A DNA stretch of 64,000 nt from an uncultured Clostridium sp. (lineage in GTDB: Bacteria; Cyanobacteriota; Vampirovibrionia; Gastranaerophilales; Gastranaerophilaceae): positions 221,864-285,863 of the forward strand of contig CABROM010000001.1 in NCBI GenBank assembly GCA_902472585.1, given 5' to 3'. Positions 1,382 through 61,503 of the stretch are shown piece by piece (the stretch's first letter is position 1; every line of letters starts with the position of its first letter). The translations under genes and the position numbers were made by a program. Under the pieces are notes generated by a model, which was not told the DNA's origin, did not search any database, and saw only the letters and a program-made list of their open reading frames with translations.

Positions 1382-1437
1382 ATTGACAAATTCTCAAAAA
1401 TATTAAATAATAAATATATAAATAGGAGGAAAACACG

Positions 1438-2116
1438 ATGAATAGAGCTTTTAGAATCGCCCCCCCCCGAAAAATTAAGATATAGCACAGGGGTTAAGGG
1501 GTTTACATTAGCAGAAGTATTGATTTCACTTGGTATTATTGGTATTGTTGCAGCTCTAACAATACCAGCACTTATTCAAAATACTAAAAAACAAGAAGCA
1601 AGTTCCAGAATAAAAAAATTCGTATCCGTAATAAATCAGGCACTTATATATGCAGAATTGGACTACGGATCTAGAGAAGATTGGAATATTGGCGAGACGG
1701 ATAGTTCAGATGCTGCATTCGATTTTTTAAATACATATATAAAACCTTACGTCAAAAGTTTTGACATTGAAAAACGACAATTATTAGGAAGGAATATGGC
1801 AACATTACGCTTTGTAGACGGTTCACAAATGAGTATTAAAATAGGCGCTTGTTATGATATTTATTATGACATAAATGGGGAAAAAGCTCCAAATGAGAAA
1901 GGTAGAGATATATACCCATTTATTCTATGCAGAAAAAGCGAAACTTGTAATGTGGCAAGTAATCAAGTTAGACCTTTTTACTGTATGCCAACAGGGACTC
2001 CATATCCAACGCATGAAGAATTGCTGAATGATTGCAAAAACGATGGGACATATTGCACTAAACTTCTTCAAGAAAACCAGTACGAATTTCCTAAAGATTA
2101 CCCCAAAAGGTTATAA
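1438..2116 (+). CDS. Type IV pilin-like protein (prepilin N-terminal cleavage/methylation domain). Reading frame interrupted at a poly-C tract, putative phase-variable gene currently OFF.
   Basis: ATG at 1438 with RBS aggagga 8 nt upstream encodes MNRAFRIAPPP..., then a stop at 1483. The +1 frame continues ...EKLRYSTGVKGFTLAEVLISLGIIGIVAALTIPALIQNT (class III signal peptide and hydrophobic alpha1 helix). There is no in-frame start between the stop at 1439 and the GFTLAEVL motif; the ORF-track TTG start at 1520 lies inside the mature pilin helix. Removing one C (8 C) or adding two (11 C) restores a single ORF. The Cys-rich C-terminus is typical of pilins. Confidence 0.75.
1460..1468 (+). repeat. 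Homopolymeric C9 tract (candidate slipped-strand phase-variation switch) inside the pilin leader-peptide coding region
   Basis: atcgc-ccccccccc-gaaaa read directly. G/C homopolymers of this length are highly non-random in this AT-rich sequence. Confidence 0.85.
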
Positions 2117-2120
2117 ACAA

Positions 2121-3875
2121 TTACATTCTACCGCTTAGAAAAGCTAAGTTTTCTGGTTTAATCATTGCCTGATATTGTTCATTCAATGTTGGAGAAGCTG
2201 CATTTGCTTTTGCATGTTGCTCAGATTTGTTTGCATTTGTTGCTGTTTCTGCTGCTGTTCCTTGATTTTGAGCTTTTGCAGCTGCAAGTTTTGCTTTACG
2301 TTTTTGTTCAGATTTATCTGTCATATAAATATTCAATCTAGGAATACCTGCACCTAATACAAGTCCTGAATACAAGTAACCTGCAACTTGAGCAATATTT
2401 AATGCTTTTAACTTTCCTTTTGTTTCTTTTCTTATTGCTTCATTAACTTGAGCTGAAGAAAGTTTTTGCATTAATTGTTTAAATGAAAGAGCTTTGCCAT
2501 TTTCAATAGGGTTAATACCAGCTGCTTTCAAGCCTCTATGCAAAACTTCATCTCTTGTAACCAAAGGAGCTTTTATAACCTTGTTGAAGAAGCCTTTACC
2601 ATGTTCTTTTTCACTGTAATTCAAAAGATTTTGATCAATAGCATTAGCAGCTATTTTAGCAACAAAGTTACCTAAAATAAGCCAGTTAAAGAAGCCTAAA
2701 ACATCTTTTACAACAGATTCTCTAAGTTCATCCTTATCACGTGCAACTATAAATCTTGACATGATTGTTACACCATAAATAAACTTAAATTGATCTAATG
2801 TAGGAACAAGACCTTTAAATTGAATTTTCTTTAAAATACCTTTAAATCCGCCACGCATACCTAATGATGCTAAAATACCACCACCAAATAATGCAGCAGC
2901 ACCGACTTTTAATGCTTTAAAGCCTGCTGAATAATCTTTTTCACGGCCTTCAACACCTACAAATCCGTCACTACCTGTCTTTTTCTTAGTCAAATAAATG
3001 TTCAAAGGTTGAATTGACATACCGACAGCAGATGCAATACCAATACCGAGAACTGAACGTCCAAGGTTCATATGTTTTAAATCTGCAATATATTTATTAA
3101 CTTTAAAATCTTTTGCAAATTCTTTTGCAATATTTTCATTTTTATTAACAAATGTACGAGAAACATTATAAACACTTTCAATAATGTTTTCCAAAGATGC
3201 AGTAGCAGCATCTTTACCAAGTCTGAATGTATTTTCAGAACCTGTTGCATTTGTAATTACTGAACGTGCGTATGCCTTCAAATCCTTAGAAATTGTTACA
3301 GGAGCTTCTTCTTTATTCAATACTTGAGAGAATTTTTCTACAACATCATCAACGTTATTTTCAGGGATTTTTATCCAATCATCACCGATACGAGTTTCTG
3401 CAGAACCAAATACATCTTTCAAATAAGCCTGTAATGGTTCTTTATTTCCGGCTTTAACTTGCTTATCCCAAGCTTTACCTAAAAGCTGAATAGTATCATC
3501 ATCAACAAATATTTTATGAGCCTTAACACCATATTTTTTATTTAATGCAGCAGCAATTGCAACACCAGCAAGAGTACCATAAACCCCAACTAAAGAATGG
3601 TTAATTGTACCGGAAGCTTCTCTTCTACCTGTTTCCATACCTGCAGCCGGGCCTCTTTTAACCATATCAATTGTAGTACGAGGGATTACCATAGATCCTA
3701 AATCCACAGCATTTGCACCCCAAGCCTGGTTTGTGTCTAAAAATCTTAAAAATACAGTTGCAGCATCAAAAGCACCTGTAAATTTTACATTATCATTGCT
3801 ATTTTGTTTGTAATTTTCTAAATTTTGTTTATGTTGTACTTGTTGTAATTGTGGGGCAATTTGTTGAATTTTCAT
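2121..3875 (-). CDS. Hypothetical 584-aa protein, paralog A of a tandem pair, with Gly-rich hydrophobic segments; family not recognised
   Basis: Long ORF with a good RBS (aaggagaaaataaatt before ATG). Clear similarity to the adjacent ORF 3890..5677, for example IPRT...GRREASGTI vs IPRT...FRRESSGLI, QFKGLVPTLDQF vs QFKGIFPTMDQA, DELRESVVKDV vs NELRESTVRDI. Confidence 0.7.
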   Translation of the reverse strand: MKIQQIAPQLQQVQHKQNLENYKQNSNDNVKFTGAFDAATVFLRFLDTNQAWGANAVDLGSMVIPRTTIDMVKRGPAAGMETGRREASGTINHSLVGVYGTLAGVAIAAALNKKYGVKAHKIFVDDDTIQLLGKAWDKQVKAGNKEPLQAYLKDVFGSAETRIGDDWIKIPENNVDDVVEKFSQVLNKEEAPVTISKDLKAYARSVITNATGSENTFRLGKDAATASLENIIESVYNVSRTFVNKNENIAKEFAKDFKVNKYIADLKHMNLGRSVLGIGIASAVGMSIQPLNIYLTKKKTGSDGFVGVEGREKDYSAGFKALKVGAAALFGGGILASLGMRGGFKGILKKIQFKGLVPTLDQFKFIYGVTIMSRFIVARDKDELRESVVKDVLGFFNWLILGNFVAKIAANAIDQNLLNYSEKEHGKGFFNKVIKAPLVTRDEVLHRGLKAAGINPIENGKALSFKQLMQKLSSAQVNEAIRKETKGKLKALNIAQVAGYLYSGLVLGAGIPRLNIYMTDKSEQKRKAKLAAAKAQNQGTAAETATNANKSEQHAKANAASPTLNEQYQAMIKPENLAFLSGRM

Positions 3876-3889
3876 AATTTATTTTCTCC

Positions 3890-5677
3890 TTACGAATTGA
3901 AAAATGACTTAAACGCTGTGTTATCCTTGACTAATGACCTTGTAAATTCATCATTTAGAACGGTTGATGAAGTTTCGGTCATTGCGGACGAGGAGGATGT
4001 TCGTCCGGATGAGGACGTTGTCGCGTTTAATGAAGCCGAATTATTTTGCTTTTCAGCTTCCAATTTCGCAAGTTCTGCAGCATGTCTTTTATTTATTGTC
4101 GTCCTAGTGTATAATGGGATGAACACTCCTAACGACAACAATGAGAATACAATATTACCGATTTGACAAATTGTTCTCATACGTTTGTCATTATGAGTTG
4201 CAAGTTCATCAGAAGATTTTAAAGATGTATGTTTGGCCCAATGCCAGAATTTTTTCATAAAGCTAGCATTTTTATCAGGTTCAGGTTTCAATCTGTTTAT
4301 CAAATGAATACCATCTTTTTTATGCTTATGTTCCAAAAATGTTGCAATACCTTTAGCAAGGTAATCTCCTAAGAAATAAAAACTTGAGAATGTAGCAATA
4401 TCACGAACTGTTGATTCTCGTAATTCATTTCTATCTTCAGAAGACCCCATACGGCTTGCAAATGTTGCGGTTGAAATTAATCTTGCCTGATCCATAGTAG
4501 GGAAAATACCTTTAAATTGCAAGATATTTTTCAATATAGGTTTGTCCATAAACATAGATAAACCGCATACTCCGAGCATTGAACCAATAGAAATAAATTT
4601 TTGAGCTAAAAGTTCTTTTTTTTCTTTTGGAGATAATTCTTTATGTTCTGTTTCTTTATTAAAATCTTTATAAATCGGAGCACCTTTTCTACCGGATGTC
4701 TTACGAGTAATCCATCTGTTAATAGGCTGCATAGAAATAGCAAGCGGAATAATTAATCCTAAACCGCCAATACTCTTCCAATTTACAAGTTTTTTAGCTC
4801 TATTAAAGTATTTAGAAAGTTCATTTGCATCTGTAATATTTTCTTTTATAACACCACGAATCATTTTAACTGTATCTTCACACATTGATTCAAGGTTGTT
4901 AGAGAAGAAGCCTTTATCACCTTTGAATTTAATATTTTCGGCAATTAATGTTTCTTCTACAATATTACGATAAGCCTTTTTAAACTGTTTTGAACTGTAT
5001 TTATCAGAAGTTACAAGATTTACAAATTCATTTACGGCATTATGAACTTTTTCATTACCGATTTTACCTACAAACTTGCCGTTTGCATCATGTTTTATCT
5101 TAAGAAGTTCATCGAAATGTTTTGTTTCATGTCCATCTACACCGGAAATACTACCAAGTTCATTTCTGAAAGTATTATAAATTTTTTCTTCTTTTGTTGC
5201 TCCTTCAGCTTCTGAATAGAATTTATGAATTTTATCTATTGCATCGCCATTTGCCCAAGTATTAATAAGATTAGACTTCTTGAAACTACCCATAATAGGA
5301 CGGTGTAAAAGAGATGCAACCCCCATAACAATAAAGCTTGGGATTAAGCAGTTAACAATTAAACCTGAAGACTCACGTCTAAAAGCTTCAAAACCAGCAT
5401 AACCGTTTGATTCTTTAGTTTCTACAATCGTACGAGGAATAATAGCTGTTGACAAATCCAATACAGAAACATTTACCATTGGTTGTTTTTCACACTGCTG
5501 AACCAATAAAATTGGCAAATCAGCTAAACCGCCTTTAAATGCCGGATTATTTTTCGCATTATTATCCCTATTTGGGGCACTATTATTATTTTTATTATTT
5601 ACACTTAATAAACTAACTTTTTCTATCATAATATAGTCTGGTTTAAAAACTTCACACCTATTATAACAATGACACAC
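3890..5677 (-). CDS. Hypothetical ~580-595-aa protein, paralog B of the tandem pair (start uncertain; likely ATG MIEKVSLL... near 5629)
   Basis: Paralogous to 2121..3875. A 14-bp gap to the downstream paralog suggests one operon. N-terminal Asn/Lys-rich low-complexity stretch. Confidence 0.65.
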   Translation of the reverse strand: MCHCYNRCEVFKPDYIMIEKVSLLSVNNKNNNSAPNRDNNAKNNPAFKGGLADLPILLVQQCEKQPMVNVSVLDLSTAIIPRTIVETKESNGYAGFEAFRRESSGLIVNCLIPSFIVMGVASLLHRPIMGSFKKSNLINTWANGDAIDKIHKFYSEAEGATKEEKIYNTFRNELGSISGVDGHETKHFDELLKIKHDANGKFVGKIGNEKVHNAVNEFVNLVTSDKYSSKQFKKAYRNIVEETLIAENIKFKGDKGFFSNNLESMCEDTVKMIRGVIKENITDANELSKYFNRAKKLVNWKSIGGLGLIIPLAISMQPINRWITRKTSGRKGAPIYKDFNKETEHKELSPKEKKELLAQKFISIGSMLGVCGLSMFMDKPILKNILQFKGIFPTMDQARLISTATFASRMGSSEDRNELRESTVRDIATFSSFYFLGDYLAKGIATFLEHKHKKDGIHLINRLKPEPDKNASFMKKFWHWAKHTSLKSSDELATHNDKRMRTICQIGNIVFSLLSLGVFIPLYTRTTINKRHAAELAKLEAEKQNNSASLNATTSSSGRTSSSSAMTETSSTVLNDEFTRSLVKDNTAFKSFFNS

Positions 5678-5926
5678 TAATATTAAAAGTCAGGCAAAAA
5701 AAAAATTGCCATAATAACTGCTAATGTTAAGGAGATATTAAGAGCACTTTTTGAATTTTTTATTAAAAATAGATGTATTTTAAACAAAATTTTTATTTTT
5801 TTTGAAAAAAACTCTAAAAAAAATAATCAAAATATGCAAAAATTAAAAAAAAATTCACACAAATTTTTTGTAAATAATTGTAACAATTACGATTAATATT
5901 GAAAAATAGTATAGACAAAATATATA

Positions 5927-9998: not shown

Positions 9999-10018
9999 TA
10001 AAATCTACTAATAATAAA

Positions 10019-10049
10019 AAAGACCGCTTGAATGCGGTCTTTTTCTATG
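10019..10049. terminator. Bidirectional rho-independent terminator between convergent typA and the pilin gene
   Basis: aaaagaccgcttgaatgcggtctttttct: a 7-bp GC-containing stem flanked by A-run and T-run. Confidence 0.75.
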
Positions 10050-10789
10050 GCAAACTTTTCCAAAATGTAGGATCAGATAGAGCTTTATAAGTACACCCTG
10101 CGCCATTCATGCTATTATTAGAGGTCTTTGAGCAATACGCATCATTTGCATTATAATAAGTTGTACCTTCTGCACCCATTGGAATTAATTTTCCCTTATC
10201 ATCCAACTGAAACATAAATAAATCTTGACCTAACCGGTTTGGTCTTTTATTATAACCATTCACATCAATTGATATATATATATTCCCTGTAGTCCCATCA
10301 AAATTATTATTATTTTCAATTAAAATCAAACTTCCATCAGCTAAAACAAATTGTCCGTCATCAAACCACATCAATTCAATTGAATTTGTACCAGTAAAAT
10401 TTTTATATGTAGTCGAATTCTTATTGGGATCATTGTAATTTTTTATACAAGCAGAATCAGAATCTCCTGATCCAAAACCACAATCTTGTATAACTTTAAA
10501 ATATGGTATTATTTCAGATTTAAAACTTTGAGTACCCATGTTTGCAACAATTGGTTCACCATTTTCAGCCTGATACATATTTAGAGCTTGCGCTATCTCT
10601 GAAGCGCCTTTTTTCAATCCCGCTTCCAGCTCTTTTTTCTGCGTATTTTGTATCAATGCAGGTAAAGTCAATGCCGCAACAACCCCAATTATGCCTAATG
10701 TTATCAATACTTCAGCAAGGGTAAAACCTTTATAATTAGCGGTTAAACGCCCCCCCCCCGACGTTCCAATAAATCATGTTTTTTCATAA
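10045..10789 (-). CDS. Type IV pilin-like protein (prepilin N-terminal cleavage/methylation domain). Frame interrupted at a poly-G tract (C10 on + strand), putative phase-variable gene currently OFF.
   Basis: Minus-strand ATG at 10789 (RBS aggagctgaattt) encodes MKKHDLLERRGGG..., then TAA. The other frame continues RLTANYKGFTLAEVLITLGIIGVVAALTLPALIQNTQKK.... 11 G or 8 G would give one continuous ORF. There is no in-frame start before the GFTLAEVL motif in the current state. Confidence 0.75.
10750..10759 (-). repeat. Homopolymeric G10 tract on the coding (minus) strand (C10 on + strand); candidate phase-variation switch
   Basis: aaacgc-cccccccccc-gacg read directly on the + strand. Confidence 0.85.
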
Positions 10790-10840
10790 ATTCAGCTCCT
10801 TTGTTTAATATTCTTCTTTCTAAACTTTTATTCTATTATA

Positions 10841-11755
10841 TCAAATCTTAGAAGCTTTTTCAAGACTCTTTCCCTTTATCAAAGACTGCGAGAATACTGA
10901 TACTAATATCAAAATCATTCCAACATAAAAAGACAAAGTGAAATCACGCGCCTCTCCTAAAAAGATTACAGCCAATAATATACCATATACAGGTTCAAGA
11001 TTTCCTGCAAGGCTTACAGTAAATGCTGACAATGATTTTAAAACAGATATATGAAGCAAATACAACAAAACTGTACAGAAAAATGCCAAAATCATTAACC
11101 AGAACCAATCATTTCCGACAGGCCAAATTTGTTGAACATGAGCAAAATGCATATATATAGGTAAAAATAAAGTCATTAATAATACCCCGCCTAAAAGTTC
11201 ATAAAAAAGCATACAACGAGATGATTTCCCTACCTGAACAGTTTTATTAAACAAAGTGTATAAAGCGAACAATGCAGCAGATATTACACCTAAAATTATT
11301 CCAAACCTATAACTTGTATCAAACTTAAAGATTAACCAAATTCCAAACACTGCAATCAAGCTATAAAATAATTCAACAAATGAAAATTTAATCTTTAATA
11401 TTAAAGGCTCAAACAGTACCGTAAAAAATCCTACAAGTGAATAACAAACAACCCCGATTGAAAGAGTTGCCCATTTTATACTGCCGAAGAAAAACATCAA
11501 ATGCACTGCCAAAAGAGCACCAAGCCCTGTAATTTTTAATGCATCTTTAAATTTTTCAACAGGCTTTTTGCCCATCATCAAAAGCATAACAGCAAACATA
11601 ATAAAGGCAAAAAACATCCTATACCACACTGTCATTACTTCATTTAATGAAATCAATTTAGCTAAAAGTCCGGTAAAACCTGCTAACAATACCGAAATAT
11701 GAAGCTTTAAATATTCAAATTTTTTACTTCTTTCCATACCTTTATTCTGTCTCAA
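10841..11755 (-). CDS. DMT-superfamily (EamA-like) 10-TM transporter
   Basis: 304 aa, with two halves of ~5 hydrophobic helices each, as in EamA/RarD-type permeases. Family call from architecture only. Confidence 0.5.
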   Translation of the reverse strand: MRQNKGMERSKKFEYLKLHISVLLAGFTGLLAKLISLNEVMTVWYRMFFAFIMFAVMLLMMGKKPVEKFKDALKITGLGALLAVHLMFFFGSIKWATLSIGVVCYSLVGFFTVLFEPLILKIKFSFVELFYSLIAVFGIWLIFKFDTSYRFGIILGVISAALFALYTLFNKTVQVGKSSRCMLFYELLGGVLLMTLFLPIYMHFAHVQQIWPVGNDWFWLMILAFFCTVLLYLLHISVLKSLSAFTVSLAGNLEPVYGILLAVIFLGEARDFTLSFYVGMILILVSVFSQSLIKGKSLEKASKI

Positions 11756-44553: not shown

Positions 44554-44615
44554 AATAATAAAAAAAAACACTTGCAAAAAAAAAATGTTTATGTAATACT
44601 AAAAAAGTACCCGAT

Positions 44616-59947: not shown

Positions 59948-60814
59948 ATGAAAATATTATTTTGTACAGATGGCTCAAAAATAAGCTTTAATGCACTAAA
60001 AAACATCTCTCGTTGGGTTAGAAAAGCCCAAATCGATACAATATGTGTAATAGATTGGTCATTTTTACCTGATGAAATAAATATTGAGGATGAAAATTTT
60101 TCCTATACTTGTGCAAATATGGCAGACACAGTTCTTAATCACGCAAAAGAAGAAATTAATAAATTACAAATGCAAAACGGAGAACAAATAAAAAATTGCG
60201 GTTCTGCGATAGAGGGAATAATTGAACAAGCAGATAAAAAGGATTATGACTTAATTCTTATGGGCTCTCACGGCAAAAAAGGAATGCAAAAATGGTTAGG
60301 TTCGGTATCACAAGCAATTATTAACAATAGCGAAATATCAAATTATATATCTAAAGAAGAAAATAAATGTGAAAAAATTTTACTAACGACAGACGGTTCT
60401 CTTTGCTCTTTAGAAATAATGAATAAAATAATTCCGAATATAAATTTTGAGGATAAAGAAATTCATATTTGTATGGTAAATGAAGACCCGAATTTTTTAT
60501 TTCTTGACGGCACTTTAGATACAAATTGGCTTCTTGATATTCAAAAGCAGCAACAAATATATGCAGCAAAAGCAATTGACAAAATCAAAGACATAATTAA
60601 AACAAACTGCAATAAAGATGTTAATGAAACCGCAATATTATCAGGTATTCCCGCACAAAAAATAATAGATTATGCAAGAACAAGAGAAATTGATTTAATT
60701 GTTATGGGTTACAAAAGTAAGACAAAATTAGACAGATTTCTAACAGGTTCTGTCAGTAAACGAGTTCTTGAAAATGTTGTAAGTGATATATGGCTTGCAA
60801 GATGCAAGAATTAA
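59948..60814 (+). CDS. Tandem universal stress protein (UspA) domain protein
   Basis: Two Usp modules: KILFCTDGS...LILMGSHGKKGMQKWLGSVSQAIIN and KILLTTDGS...LIVMGYKSKTKLDRFLTGSVSKRVLE. Confidence 0.8.
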   Translation: MKILFCTDGSKISFNALKNISRWVRKAQIDTICVIDWSFLPDEINIEDENFSYTCANMADTVLNHAKEEINKLQMQNGEQIKNCGSAIEGIIEQADKKDYDLILMGSHGKKGMQKWLGSVSQAIINNSEISNYISKEENKCEKILLTTDGSLCSLEIMNKIIPNINFEDKEIHICMVNEDPNFLFLDGTLDTNWLLDIQKQQQIYAAKAIDKIKDIIKTNCNKDVNETAILSGIPAQKIIDYARTREIDLIVMGYKSKTKLDRFLTGSVSKRVLENVVSDIWLARCKN

Positions 60815-61503
60815 TATGTCATTTCCCAATTATTATTTAATATTAATCCAAAGCAACCCTTTGCATCTGATCTTGCAGTACAACCAAGTGCAGCCCTTAC
60901 ATCTTTTGCATTAGTTTTTCCAGATCCGCAAGATGTACCGGAAGTTCTGCATTCTGGAGGGATTCCATCTTCATCAATAGAACCGTCTTTATAATAAGAT
61001 ACAAAATATAAATCACGACCAGCGACATTTGGACCGGCTTTTCCGTTTACATCAATTGTTATATGTCCATAAGTACCGTGATATTTTGCATTTTCCAAAC
61101 ATAAAGAAGCTCCGTTTGCTATTACAAAACAAGGTGCATTGGCACTACCAAACCAATAATTACTATTATTCAAATTAGAACCATTTATATTTTTATATTG
61201 CCCATCATAAAAACAATCAGTAAAATTAGTACAAGATTTAACTATTTTAAAATAATTTTGCATAAAATTCGTAATCTCAGCAGAAGATGTAAGTCCTGCT
61301 TCATGCAGATTCAACGCATTTTTATCAGTCATATATTGCATAAAAGCCTGAGATAGCAAAGTATACACTTGATGAAGTTGGGTTGTATAAGCTTTTCTCT
61401 GGTGATTTTGCATTAATGTAGGCACTGTCATTGCTGCGACAACACCAATAATTGCTAATGTAATTAAAACTTCAGCTAATGTAAAAGCACTAAATTTTTT
61501 CAT
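60811..61503 (-). CDS. Type IV pilin-like protein (prepilin N-terminal cleavage/methylation domain), intact
   Basis: MKKFSAFTLAEVLITLAIIGVVAAMTVPTLMQN. Cys pairs in the C-terminal half. No homopolymer tract. Confidence 0.85.
   Translation of the reverse strand: MKKFSAFTLAEVLITLAIIGVVAAMTVPTLMQNHQRKAYTTQLHQVYTLLSQAFMQYMTDKNALNLHEAGLTSSAEITNFMQNYFKIVKSCTNFTDCFYDGQYKNINGSNLNNSNYWFGSANAPCFVIANGASLCLENAKYHGTYGHITIDVNGKAGPNVAGRDLYFVSYYKDGSIDEDGIPPECRTSGTSCGSGKTNAKDVRAALGCTARSDAKGCFGLILNNNWEMTY

Follow-up and report, generated by a model that had tools for sequence, protein, structure and literature searches.

A candidate slipped-strand switch in the leader of a pilin-like gene of an uncultured Gastranaerophilales bacterium

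We analysed a 64,000-nucleotide (nt) stretch of DNA from an uncultured human-gut bacterium of the Gastranaerophilales (contig CABROM010000001.1 of assembly GCA_902472585.1, positions 221,864 to 285,863), referred to below as the window. Our subject is a pilin-like gene on its minus strand, gene 2, in which a run of ten G lies in the leader and the leader and the pilin body are in different frames. A further pilin-like gene, gene 1, carries a similar tract, and an earlier note on this DNA had proposed a length-variable switch for both. Tracts are written here as G or C followed by their length, and an allele is called ON when leader and body form a single open reading frame (ORF) and OFF when they do not.

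Leader, tract and body of gene 2

Gene 2 comprises the following elements (RBS, ribosome-binding site; aa, amino acids):

10835..10863, minus strand: promoter-like site, TTGAAA, 17 nt and a TG-extended TATAAT (TGnTATAAT), 11/12 matches; identified by consensus match only
10796..10801, minus strand: RBS, AAGGAG, 8 nt 5' of ATG1 (direct reading)
10785..10787, minus strand: ATG1, start of the leader frame (MKKHDLLERRGGGV*; direct reading and in-silico editing)
10775..10777, minus strand: ATG2, a third-frame start (MIYWNVGGG...) that G9 or G12 would bring into register with the body
10750..10759, minus strand: G10 homopolymer (C10 on the plus strand), the proposed slippage tract (direct reading, run-length count and editing)
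10743..10745, minus strand: TAA that closes the leader frame in the G10 (OFF) state (direct reading and editing)
10045..10749, minus strand: prepilin body frame, with the leader end RLTANYKG, a 226-aa mature pilin and the stop codon at 10047-10045
10016..10045, minus strand: intrinsic-terminator-like hairpin followed by a T run, directly past the pilin stop codon

Read from ATG1 on the minus strand, the leader frame consists of 14 codons, MKKHDLLERRGGGV, and passes through the G10 tract, which occupies codons 10-13, to the TAA. The body (RLTANYKG|FTLAEVLITLGIIG...) is in a frame other than that of the leader and remains open until 10047-10045, with the cleavage site between G (10728-10726) and F (10725-10723). 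Gene 2 has, in other words, an uninterrupted tract inside its ORF that sets the frame. Direct reading and editing confirmed what the earlier note had said of a G10 in the leader (C10 on the plus strand) and of a gene out of frame; the ATG that it had placed at 10789 is found 2 nt away, at 10787-10785, and the leader that it had estimated at about 25 aa measures 20-21 aa. Editing of the tract in silico gave a single ORF from ATG1 at the two lengths that had been predicted to restore one, G8 (246 aa) and G11 (247 aa), and G14 was likewise ON from ATG1, while at G7, G9, G10 and G12 translation from ATG1 would meet a stop within 13-17 codons.

The ORF list contains for gene 2 merely a 220-aa ORF that starts at TTG 10707, downstream of the prepilin cleavage site, and therefore no processable pilin can be expected from it. 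The earlier claim that the body has no usable start thus stands for a cleavable prepilin and not in the literal sense, as this in-frame TTG exists past the G|F site. ATG2 lies 18-19 nt from the RBS, and its use is doubtful because it is too distant from that site. Since a strong promoter-like site and a terminator hairpin bracket the gene, gene 2 appears to be a complete monocistronic unit.

Pfam and NCBIfam scores for genes 1 and 2 were taken on the frame-restored proteins. That of gene 2 matched PF07963 with 27.1 bits (cut-off 21.2) and TIGR02532 with 23.6 (cut-off 16.3); for gene 1 the corresponding scores were 23.4 and 23.1 bits, above the curated cut-offs, and DUF6613 was matched too. Gene 2 has the marks of a class III signal peptide, i.e. 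Gly at -1, Phe at +1 and Glu at +5, followed by about 20 hydrophobic residues (NYKG|FTLAEVLITLGIIGVVAALTLPAL), and it also has the fold of pilins, in which a long N-terminal alpha-helix packs against a beta sheet. Judged by these features, the products of both genes are pilin-like proteins with a divergent head domain, and we make no assignment among type IVa pilus, competence pilus and pseudopilus. No gene for pilus assembly machinery or prepilin peptidase was found among the ten window ORFs scanned; pilA, pilB, pilC, pilD and pilT have been reported in the termite-gut Ca. Gastranaerophilus termiticola (PMC5877343).

Tracts in the window and across the pilin family

The window has a G+C content of 32% and contains only two G or C runs longer than 5 nt, the C9 at 1460-1468 and the C10 at 10750-10759, all others being at most 5 nt long. 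By an analytic estimate, about 0.012 runs of at least 9 would be expected in the window, and the probability of finding two or more is 7e-5. Both tracts lie 21-30 nt upstream, on the coding side, of prepilin N-terminal motifs; a six-frame scan of the window found three such motifs, two of which have a tract upstream. The elements of gene 1, and the third prepilin-like gene as a comparator, are:

1383..1411, plus strand: gene 1 promoter-like site, TTGACA, 17 nt, AATAAT
1424-1429, plus strand: gene 1 RBS, AGGAGG
1438..1485, plus strand: gene 1 leader frame, MNRAFRIAPPRKIKI, from ATG 1438-1440 to the stop TAG 1483-1485
1460..1468, plus strand: gene 1 C9 homopolymer, for which C8 or C11 is ON (run-length count and editing)
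1469..2116, plus strand: gene 1 prepilin body frame (…KG|FTLAEV…; N_methyl and DUF6613)
60811..61503, minus strand: third prepilin-like gene, with a short leader (MKKFSA|FTLAEV) and without a tract (N_methyl, 26.4 bits)

The body of gene 1 reads KG|FTLAEVLISLGIIG..., and its tract begins at codon 8, so that the earlier placement of both tracts about 10 codons into the leader is right for gene 2 (codon 10) and not for gene 1. The third gene is presumably expressed constitutively.

The gene 1 tract was found with identical flanks in 13 assemblies (the window and loci L022-L028 and L153-L157), as C9 in three, C10 in nine and C11 in one, and hence in all three frames across samples; the C11 allele is in frame and is called as a 226-aa protein (P0133). 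The truncated 198-aa call accounts for 14 of the 15 distinct proteins in the 90% cluster of gene 1, and a look-up of the window's own 198-aa ORF gave no record, though the cluster table lists that ORF. Tract length also varies in 3 of the 12 ortholog groups with more than one member. In another species, the syntenic ortholog of gene 2 (L015) shares the leader MKKHDLLERRGGG, has G10 and is in frame, and its pilin body is only 31% identical despite the shared leader. Together with the many related genes of the same design described below, the variation at gene 1 supports the parallel that had been drawn between the two genes.

A protein search returned more than 7,500 relatives, many with GGG, GGGG or PPP in the leader and many with gene calls that begin inside the mature protein (MITLGIIG...). 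Those in species-representative genomes belong to metagenome-assembled genomes from gut samples, labelled Candidatus Gastranaerophilales, Candidatus Scatousia or 'uncultured bacterium'. The gene 2 leader in its exact form, followed by at least 6 G, had no match in the metagenomes, and a general, frame-blind DNA pattern was used instead (at least 8 G, then 8-38 nt, then FTLAEVLIT). It found at least 119 loci (L032-L150). Once the window and the loci from genomes and assemblies (L001-L031) are added to these, the set contains at least 127 distinct genes whose leader has a G tract on the coding strand. The counts of family genes given from here on are counts among the matches listed. The 123 distinct metagenome tracts listed have a modal length of 10 (60 tracts), with 3 tracts of 8, 13 of 9, 29 of 11, 11 of 12, 4 of 13 and one each of 14, 15 and 16. 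Tracts are over-represented and concentrated at pilin genes, i.e. at genes of the surface type: among the 158 G/C runs of at least 8 that occur in the metagenome loci (861 kb), 149 are no more than 700 nt away from a pilin N-terminal motif lying on the appropriate side, and for 136 the distance is at most 75 nt.

The design of these genes is uniform. A start codon next to an RBS lies 5' of the tract in 126 of the 127 genes, and in 123 there is no in-frame start between tract and cleavage site, which leaves the tract as the one way to make the protein. Each of the 105 complete mature frames is open (206-350 aa), and at position -1 there are 87 genes with G, 39 with A and one with S. In paralogs without a tract the leader is just 3-8 residues long, and it therefore seems that the long leader is there to accommodate the tract.

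Two ways around the tract were considered and rejected. A second functional start of the ATG2 type as a general feature fails as such ATGs are too far from the RBS and as admitting ATGs without an RBS rescues only 3 more genes (14 versus 11 of 126 genes in frame). Re-initiation past the short leader ORF would require an in-frame start between tract and cleavage site, which gene 2 lacks, as do the 123 relatives just mentioned.

Some leaders contain a degenerate extra copy of AFTLAE, e.g. ...SAFTLAEGAAQICHFDNICRA|AFTLAEVLITLG (L015, 3001-3150; L005, about 2900-3020), and the proteins P0069, P0079, P0087 and P0097 are among those with a duplicated motif of this type; the join looks as if a leader module had recombined onto the start of another pilin gene. 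Furthermore, at L002 and L003 (tract at 2889), L004 (2712) and L005 (2547) a pilin gene with an RBS of its own and a short leader has, 105-459 nt upstream, a G10 that follows a separate RBS and ATG. Such a detached tract may be a remnant or belong to an upstream ORF.

Slippage at the tract and alternative explanations

The earlier note had missed that the OFF state is the rule throughout the family. When translated from the RBS-adjacent start, 11 of the 122 scorable genes are in frame, while 61 need one more G and 50 one less; if one third were in frame, the probability of 11 or fewer would be 3e-10. Moreover, the observed length depends on the gene's own in-frame length (chi-square P = 2e-11): genes that are ON at 8, 11 or 14 have G10 in 51 cases, G12 in 10, G9 in 7 and G11 in 5, and genes that are ON at 7, 10 or 13 have G11 in 25 cases, G9 in 6 and G10 in 3. 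Both window genes match this pattern, gene 2 with 10 observed and 11 needed, gene 1 mostly with 10 and with 11 needed. Within a single sample, the contigs of ERZ779843 hold 19 tract-bearing pilin genes in 138 kb, of which 2 are ON and 17 OFF. Lengths that avoid each gene's own frame must have a biological origin, since an error process is blind to frame.

This bears directly on whether the true tract is G11 (or G8) and gene 2 simply intact, the artefact that the earlier note had named as its own refutation. Long G runs are indeed error-prone in library amplification, and the uniformity of lengths within data sets could hint at a bias specific to each. G10 followed by CGTTTAACC is, however, present in eight independent assemblies from different projects (L017, L018, L019, L021, L031, L151, L152 and the window), and the G10 of gene 2 is for that reason not a sequencing error. 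In addition, a bias that leaves genes needing 11 at 10 and genes needing 10 at 11 would have to act by +1 in some lineages and by -1 in others, and gene 1 occurs at 9, 10 and 11 across samples. We consider a sequencing or assembly error scarcely credible.

From the sequence comparisons, gene 2 is probably a slipped-strand contingency locus resting in the OFF state, one of many tract-bearing paralogous pilin genes in this lineage. Ribosomes would start at the ATG beside the RBS and, with G10, would stop after 14 codons without making a prepilin. Slipped-strand mispairing during replication, by adding one G or removing two, would fuse the leader to the body, and the product would have a 21-aa leader ending in Lys-Gly, which prepilin peptidase would cut before Phe+1; the protein would then be processed and assembled into a filament. 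We infer that replication slippage changes the tract length reversibly and at high rates within a clone. With each paralog having its own tract, mostly one base from ON, few pilins would be expressed at once, and host immunity or phage pressure may keep most loci OFF.

Several observations weigh against this interpretation. Gene 2 has G10 in 8/8 assemblies, with no pure length change, and the variants found elsewhere are OFF from ATG1 as well: L020 (ERZ28616521) reads GTG8 at unchanged total length, and L029 and L030 have G9 without the adjacent CGT. A tract-length difference with identical flanks is thus seen for gene 1 and in 3/12 ortholog groups and not for gene 2, for which the look-ups were keyed on the OFF-state protein and so biased toward OFF alleles. 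Six hypothetical ON proteins of gene 2 were all absent in exact look-ups among about 15 billion sequences. Tract lengths are uniform within samples and differ between them, all 19 tracts of ERZ779843 being G11-G12 and six samples having G10 only. Finally, ON alleles make up just 9%, far under the one third expected for unselected switching.

The 90% cluster of gene 2 contains truncated forms only, and exact look-ups of two hypothetical ON proteins of gene 1 found neither. In L029 and L030 the body is 81% identical behind an identical 5' region, and the gene caller took ATG2 (allele P0004). Two G>T substitutions set the L020 leader apart from all others (CATTATTT and GTCGTG8), and the tract is interrupted by one of them; this variant could be a real stabilised allele or a low-coverage error.

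A stable tract would fit the uniformity within samples, and so would very fast switching at equilibrium. The uniformity also means that typical length is confounded with lineage and leader design. The mean of the per-sample ON fractions is 5% (59 samples). In our reading the OFF bias reflects a balance of mutation and selection, in which tracts drift around a lineage-typical 10-11 and ON cells are usually selected against, with the result that most of the population at each locus has the nearest OFF length.

The regular offset of one base could also mean that the DNA is stably out of frame and that RNA polymerase stutter, programmed or tolerated, or slippage of tRNA-Gly on the GGG codons supplies the missing shift in some of the transcripts or translation events. 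'OFF' alleles would then be attenuated alleles, and many pilins would be made constitutively at a low level. Such slippage would account for the 91% of the 122 genes that are exactly one base off with intact bodies, for consensus lengths that are uniform within samples and for the constant G10 of gene 2, and 9-10 or more identical bases span the RNA-DNA hybrid, allowing realignment free of mismatches. It would have to work by +1 in 61 genes and by -1 in 50, with gene 1 in both OFF frames and in the ON frame, and in-frame alleles exist (the 11 genes listed, L015 and L022). No stimulatory structure was found downstream of the gene 2 tract, where the 93 nt from the tract on fold like shuffles (z = +0.71), and no Rfam family reached its gathering score. 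Transcriptional slippage in bacteria is documented mainly for A/T runs and not for G/C runs. Slippage of this kind can coexist with switching at the DNA level and not replace it, and as a rival explanation we find it unlikely.

Programmed ribosomal frameshifting, taken by itself, is unlikely because both directions would be needed about equally, in-frame alleles exist, gene 1 occurs in three frames and no structure was found. Orthologs do not share one conserved out-of-frame direction, given the 61/50/11 split, and the presence of OFF alleles in both frames argues against a direction-specific programmed shift.

Could gene 2 instead be a decaying pseudogene, a pilin paralog frameshifted in a mutable run and heading for loss? 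It is out of frame in every assembly of its allele, and no ON protein is on record. Against this, the 227-codon body is open and conserved, with an overall dN/dS of 0.3-0.4 between alleles, and the promoter-like site, RBS and terminator are intact. Across the family, all 105 complete bodies are open though 91% of the genes are off frame, and the frameshift is always at the tract and nowhere else. A comparison of gene 2 (10045-10725, minus strand) with L029 and L031 shows a mosaic, in which nucleotide identity is about 100% in the 5' region and in the downstream flank and falls to 61-66% in the middle of the body. This hypervariable pattern is as would be expected for an exposed, selected surface protein and not for a dead gene, and it suggests recombination or diversifying selection on the head domain. 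Decay is thus highly improbable as an explanation.

The tract flanks point to a further possibility, namely that tract and flanks are primarily a DNA-level site, for a regulator or for recombination that shuffles leaders and bodies, with the effect on frame being secondary. The flanks are conserved relative to the G strand (C-Gn-CA and weaker positions), whichever way the pilin gene reads (window 1448-1490 and 10728-10771; loci L049, L057, L062, L072, L095, L129 and L145). With a scoring matrix derived from the 127 G-coding-strand genes, which themselves score 8.3 bits, genes with C on the coding strand (8-9 only) score 9.2 bits in the G orientation, compared with -7.7 bits for shuffles and -16.6 bits for the opposite orientation, and the difference remains when the four positions adjacent to the tract are left out. 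The G run is on the locally G-rich strand in 63/76 genes with G on the coding strand, in 5/6 with C on it and at both window loci. Leaders that are conserved while bodies differ, as in L015, and the leaders with a duplicated AFTLAE would also fit such a site. The flanks have low information content beyond C-Gn-CA, however, the C-coding-strand genes amount to just eight independent ones, and the surroundings of the window loci showed neither a recombinase gene nor an inverted partner site. By our own reasoning, inversion from tract to tract cannot convert one gene orientation into the other, and we hold a primary DNA-level role to be very unlikely. Two related ideas were rejected: a palindromic tract module, as the reverse orientation scores far lower, and, on paper, inversion between tracts as the origin of the C-coding-strand genes, as it merely swaps leaders or bodies.

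A bolder proposal, to which we give little credence next to slipped-strand switching, is that being one base off is the designed state. A large low-level repertoire would then be produced through slippage of RNA polymerase or ribosome on G10-G11, or an active system working on a strand-specific C-Gn-CA module, with its G run on the G-rich strand whatever the direction of the gene, would set tract length or exchange bodies. If true, either would be a mode of surface variation undescribed for type IV pili.

The rest of the window is ordinary chromosome, as judged by the Pfam families of its ORFs and by the called neighbour genes, which include the ATP synthase gamma subunit, a TypA/BipA-type GTPase, a glycogen-synthase-like glycosyltransferase, RuvB, SAM synthetase and DNA polymerase III alpha. 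At the gene 2 locus the order is an EamA gene, then the pilin, then TypA. Next to gene 1 lie two tandem paralogs on the minus strand (2121-3875 and 3890-5677; 584 and 595 aa) with 24% identity (E = 2e-35) and no Pfam match, and tract-bearing pilins in L049 and L129 likewise have neighbouring proteins of similar length. The longest A/T homopolymers of the window are two A10 runs, at 5696-5705, between two ORFs, and at 44576-44585.

Comparison with known systems

Gastranaerophilales, which inhabit the gut of humans and animals, are relatives of Cyanobacteria that are uncultured and non-photosynthetic, and next to nothing is known of their dealings with the host. A pilin repertoire that is intact yet OFF would be the signature of contingency genes under strong, fluctuating selection, presumably by antibody or phage, and such repertoires are classically tied to pathogens such as Neisseria and Campylobacter. 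In practical terms, gene callers shorten most tract-bearing pilins by placing the start within the mature protein, as in the 220-aa and 198-aa calls, and tract lengths in metagenomes could give a read-out of in vivo selection on pili.

The closest functional analogue appears to be the opa family of Neisseria, in which usually only few genes are ON. These are paralogous surface-protein genes with CTCTT repeats in the region coding for the leader peptide, switched independently by slipped-strand mispairing (PMC3960869). Like opa, the pilin family consists of scattered paralogs, each with its own tract in the signal or leader region through which slippage would set the frame, and the bodies have hypervariable regions, which in opa are shaped by recombination. 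The differences from opa are a mononucleotide G/C run in place of a pentamer, type IV prepilins with a class III signal peptide in place of beta-barrel outer-membrane proteins and, as the organism, an uncultured gut commensal related to Cyanobacteria in place of a proteobacterial pathogen. The number of loci per genome is apparently higher too (at least 19 in one sample).

A poly-G tract in the signal-peptide region of Neisseria pilC1 and pilC2 reportedly switches expression and piliation by frameshift (Jonsson et al. 1991). PilC, however, is an adhesin and biogenesis factor with a Sec-type signal peptide and two copies, whereas here the switched protein would be a pilin of a large family. The poly-G phasome of Campylobacter jejuni resembles our case in that a low-GC, host-associated genome has rare, non-random G/C runs of about 8-12 nt in genes for surface structures, with lengths that vary between isolates. 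Its tracts lie at various ORF positions in glycosylation, capsule, flagellar-modification and restriction genes, in contrast to the one fixed position, in the leader, of one protein family found here. Pilins with constant N-terminal and variable C-terminal parts are also known from Piv inversion in Moraxella and from pilE/pilS gene conversion in Neisseria. Those systems work by site-specific inversion and by RecA-dependent gene conversion, unlike the control of frame by a homopolymer proposed here, and no invertase or silent-cassette arrangement was seen at the loci.

Our search of a paper library found no report linking Gastranaerophilales or Melainabacteria to homopolymer switching of pilins. 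The best reading of these comparisons is a slipped-strand contingency locus resembling opa and pilC, in an unreported lineage and protein family. What differs from the known systems is that the switched protein would be the pilin itself, with a class III signal peptide, that the tract has a fixed position throughout a very large family, the lineage in which this occurs and the extreme bias towards the OFF state.

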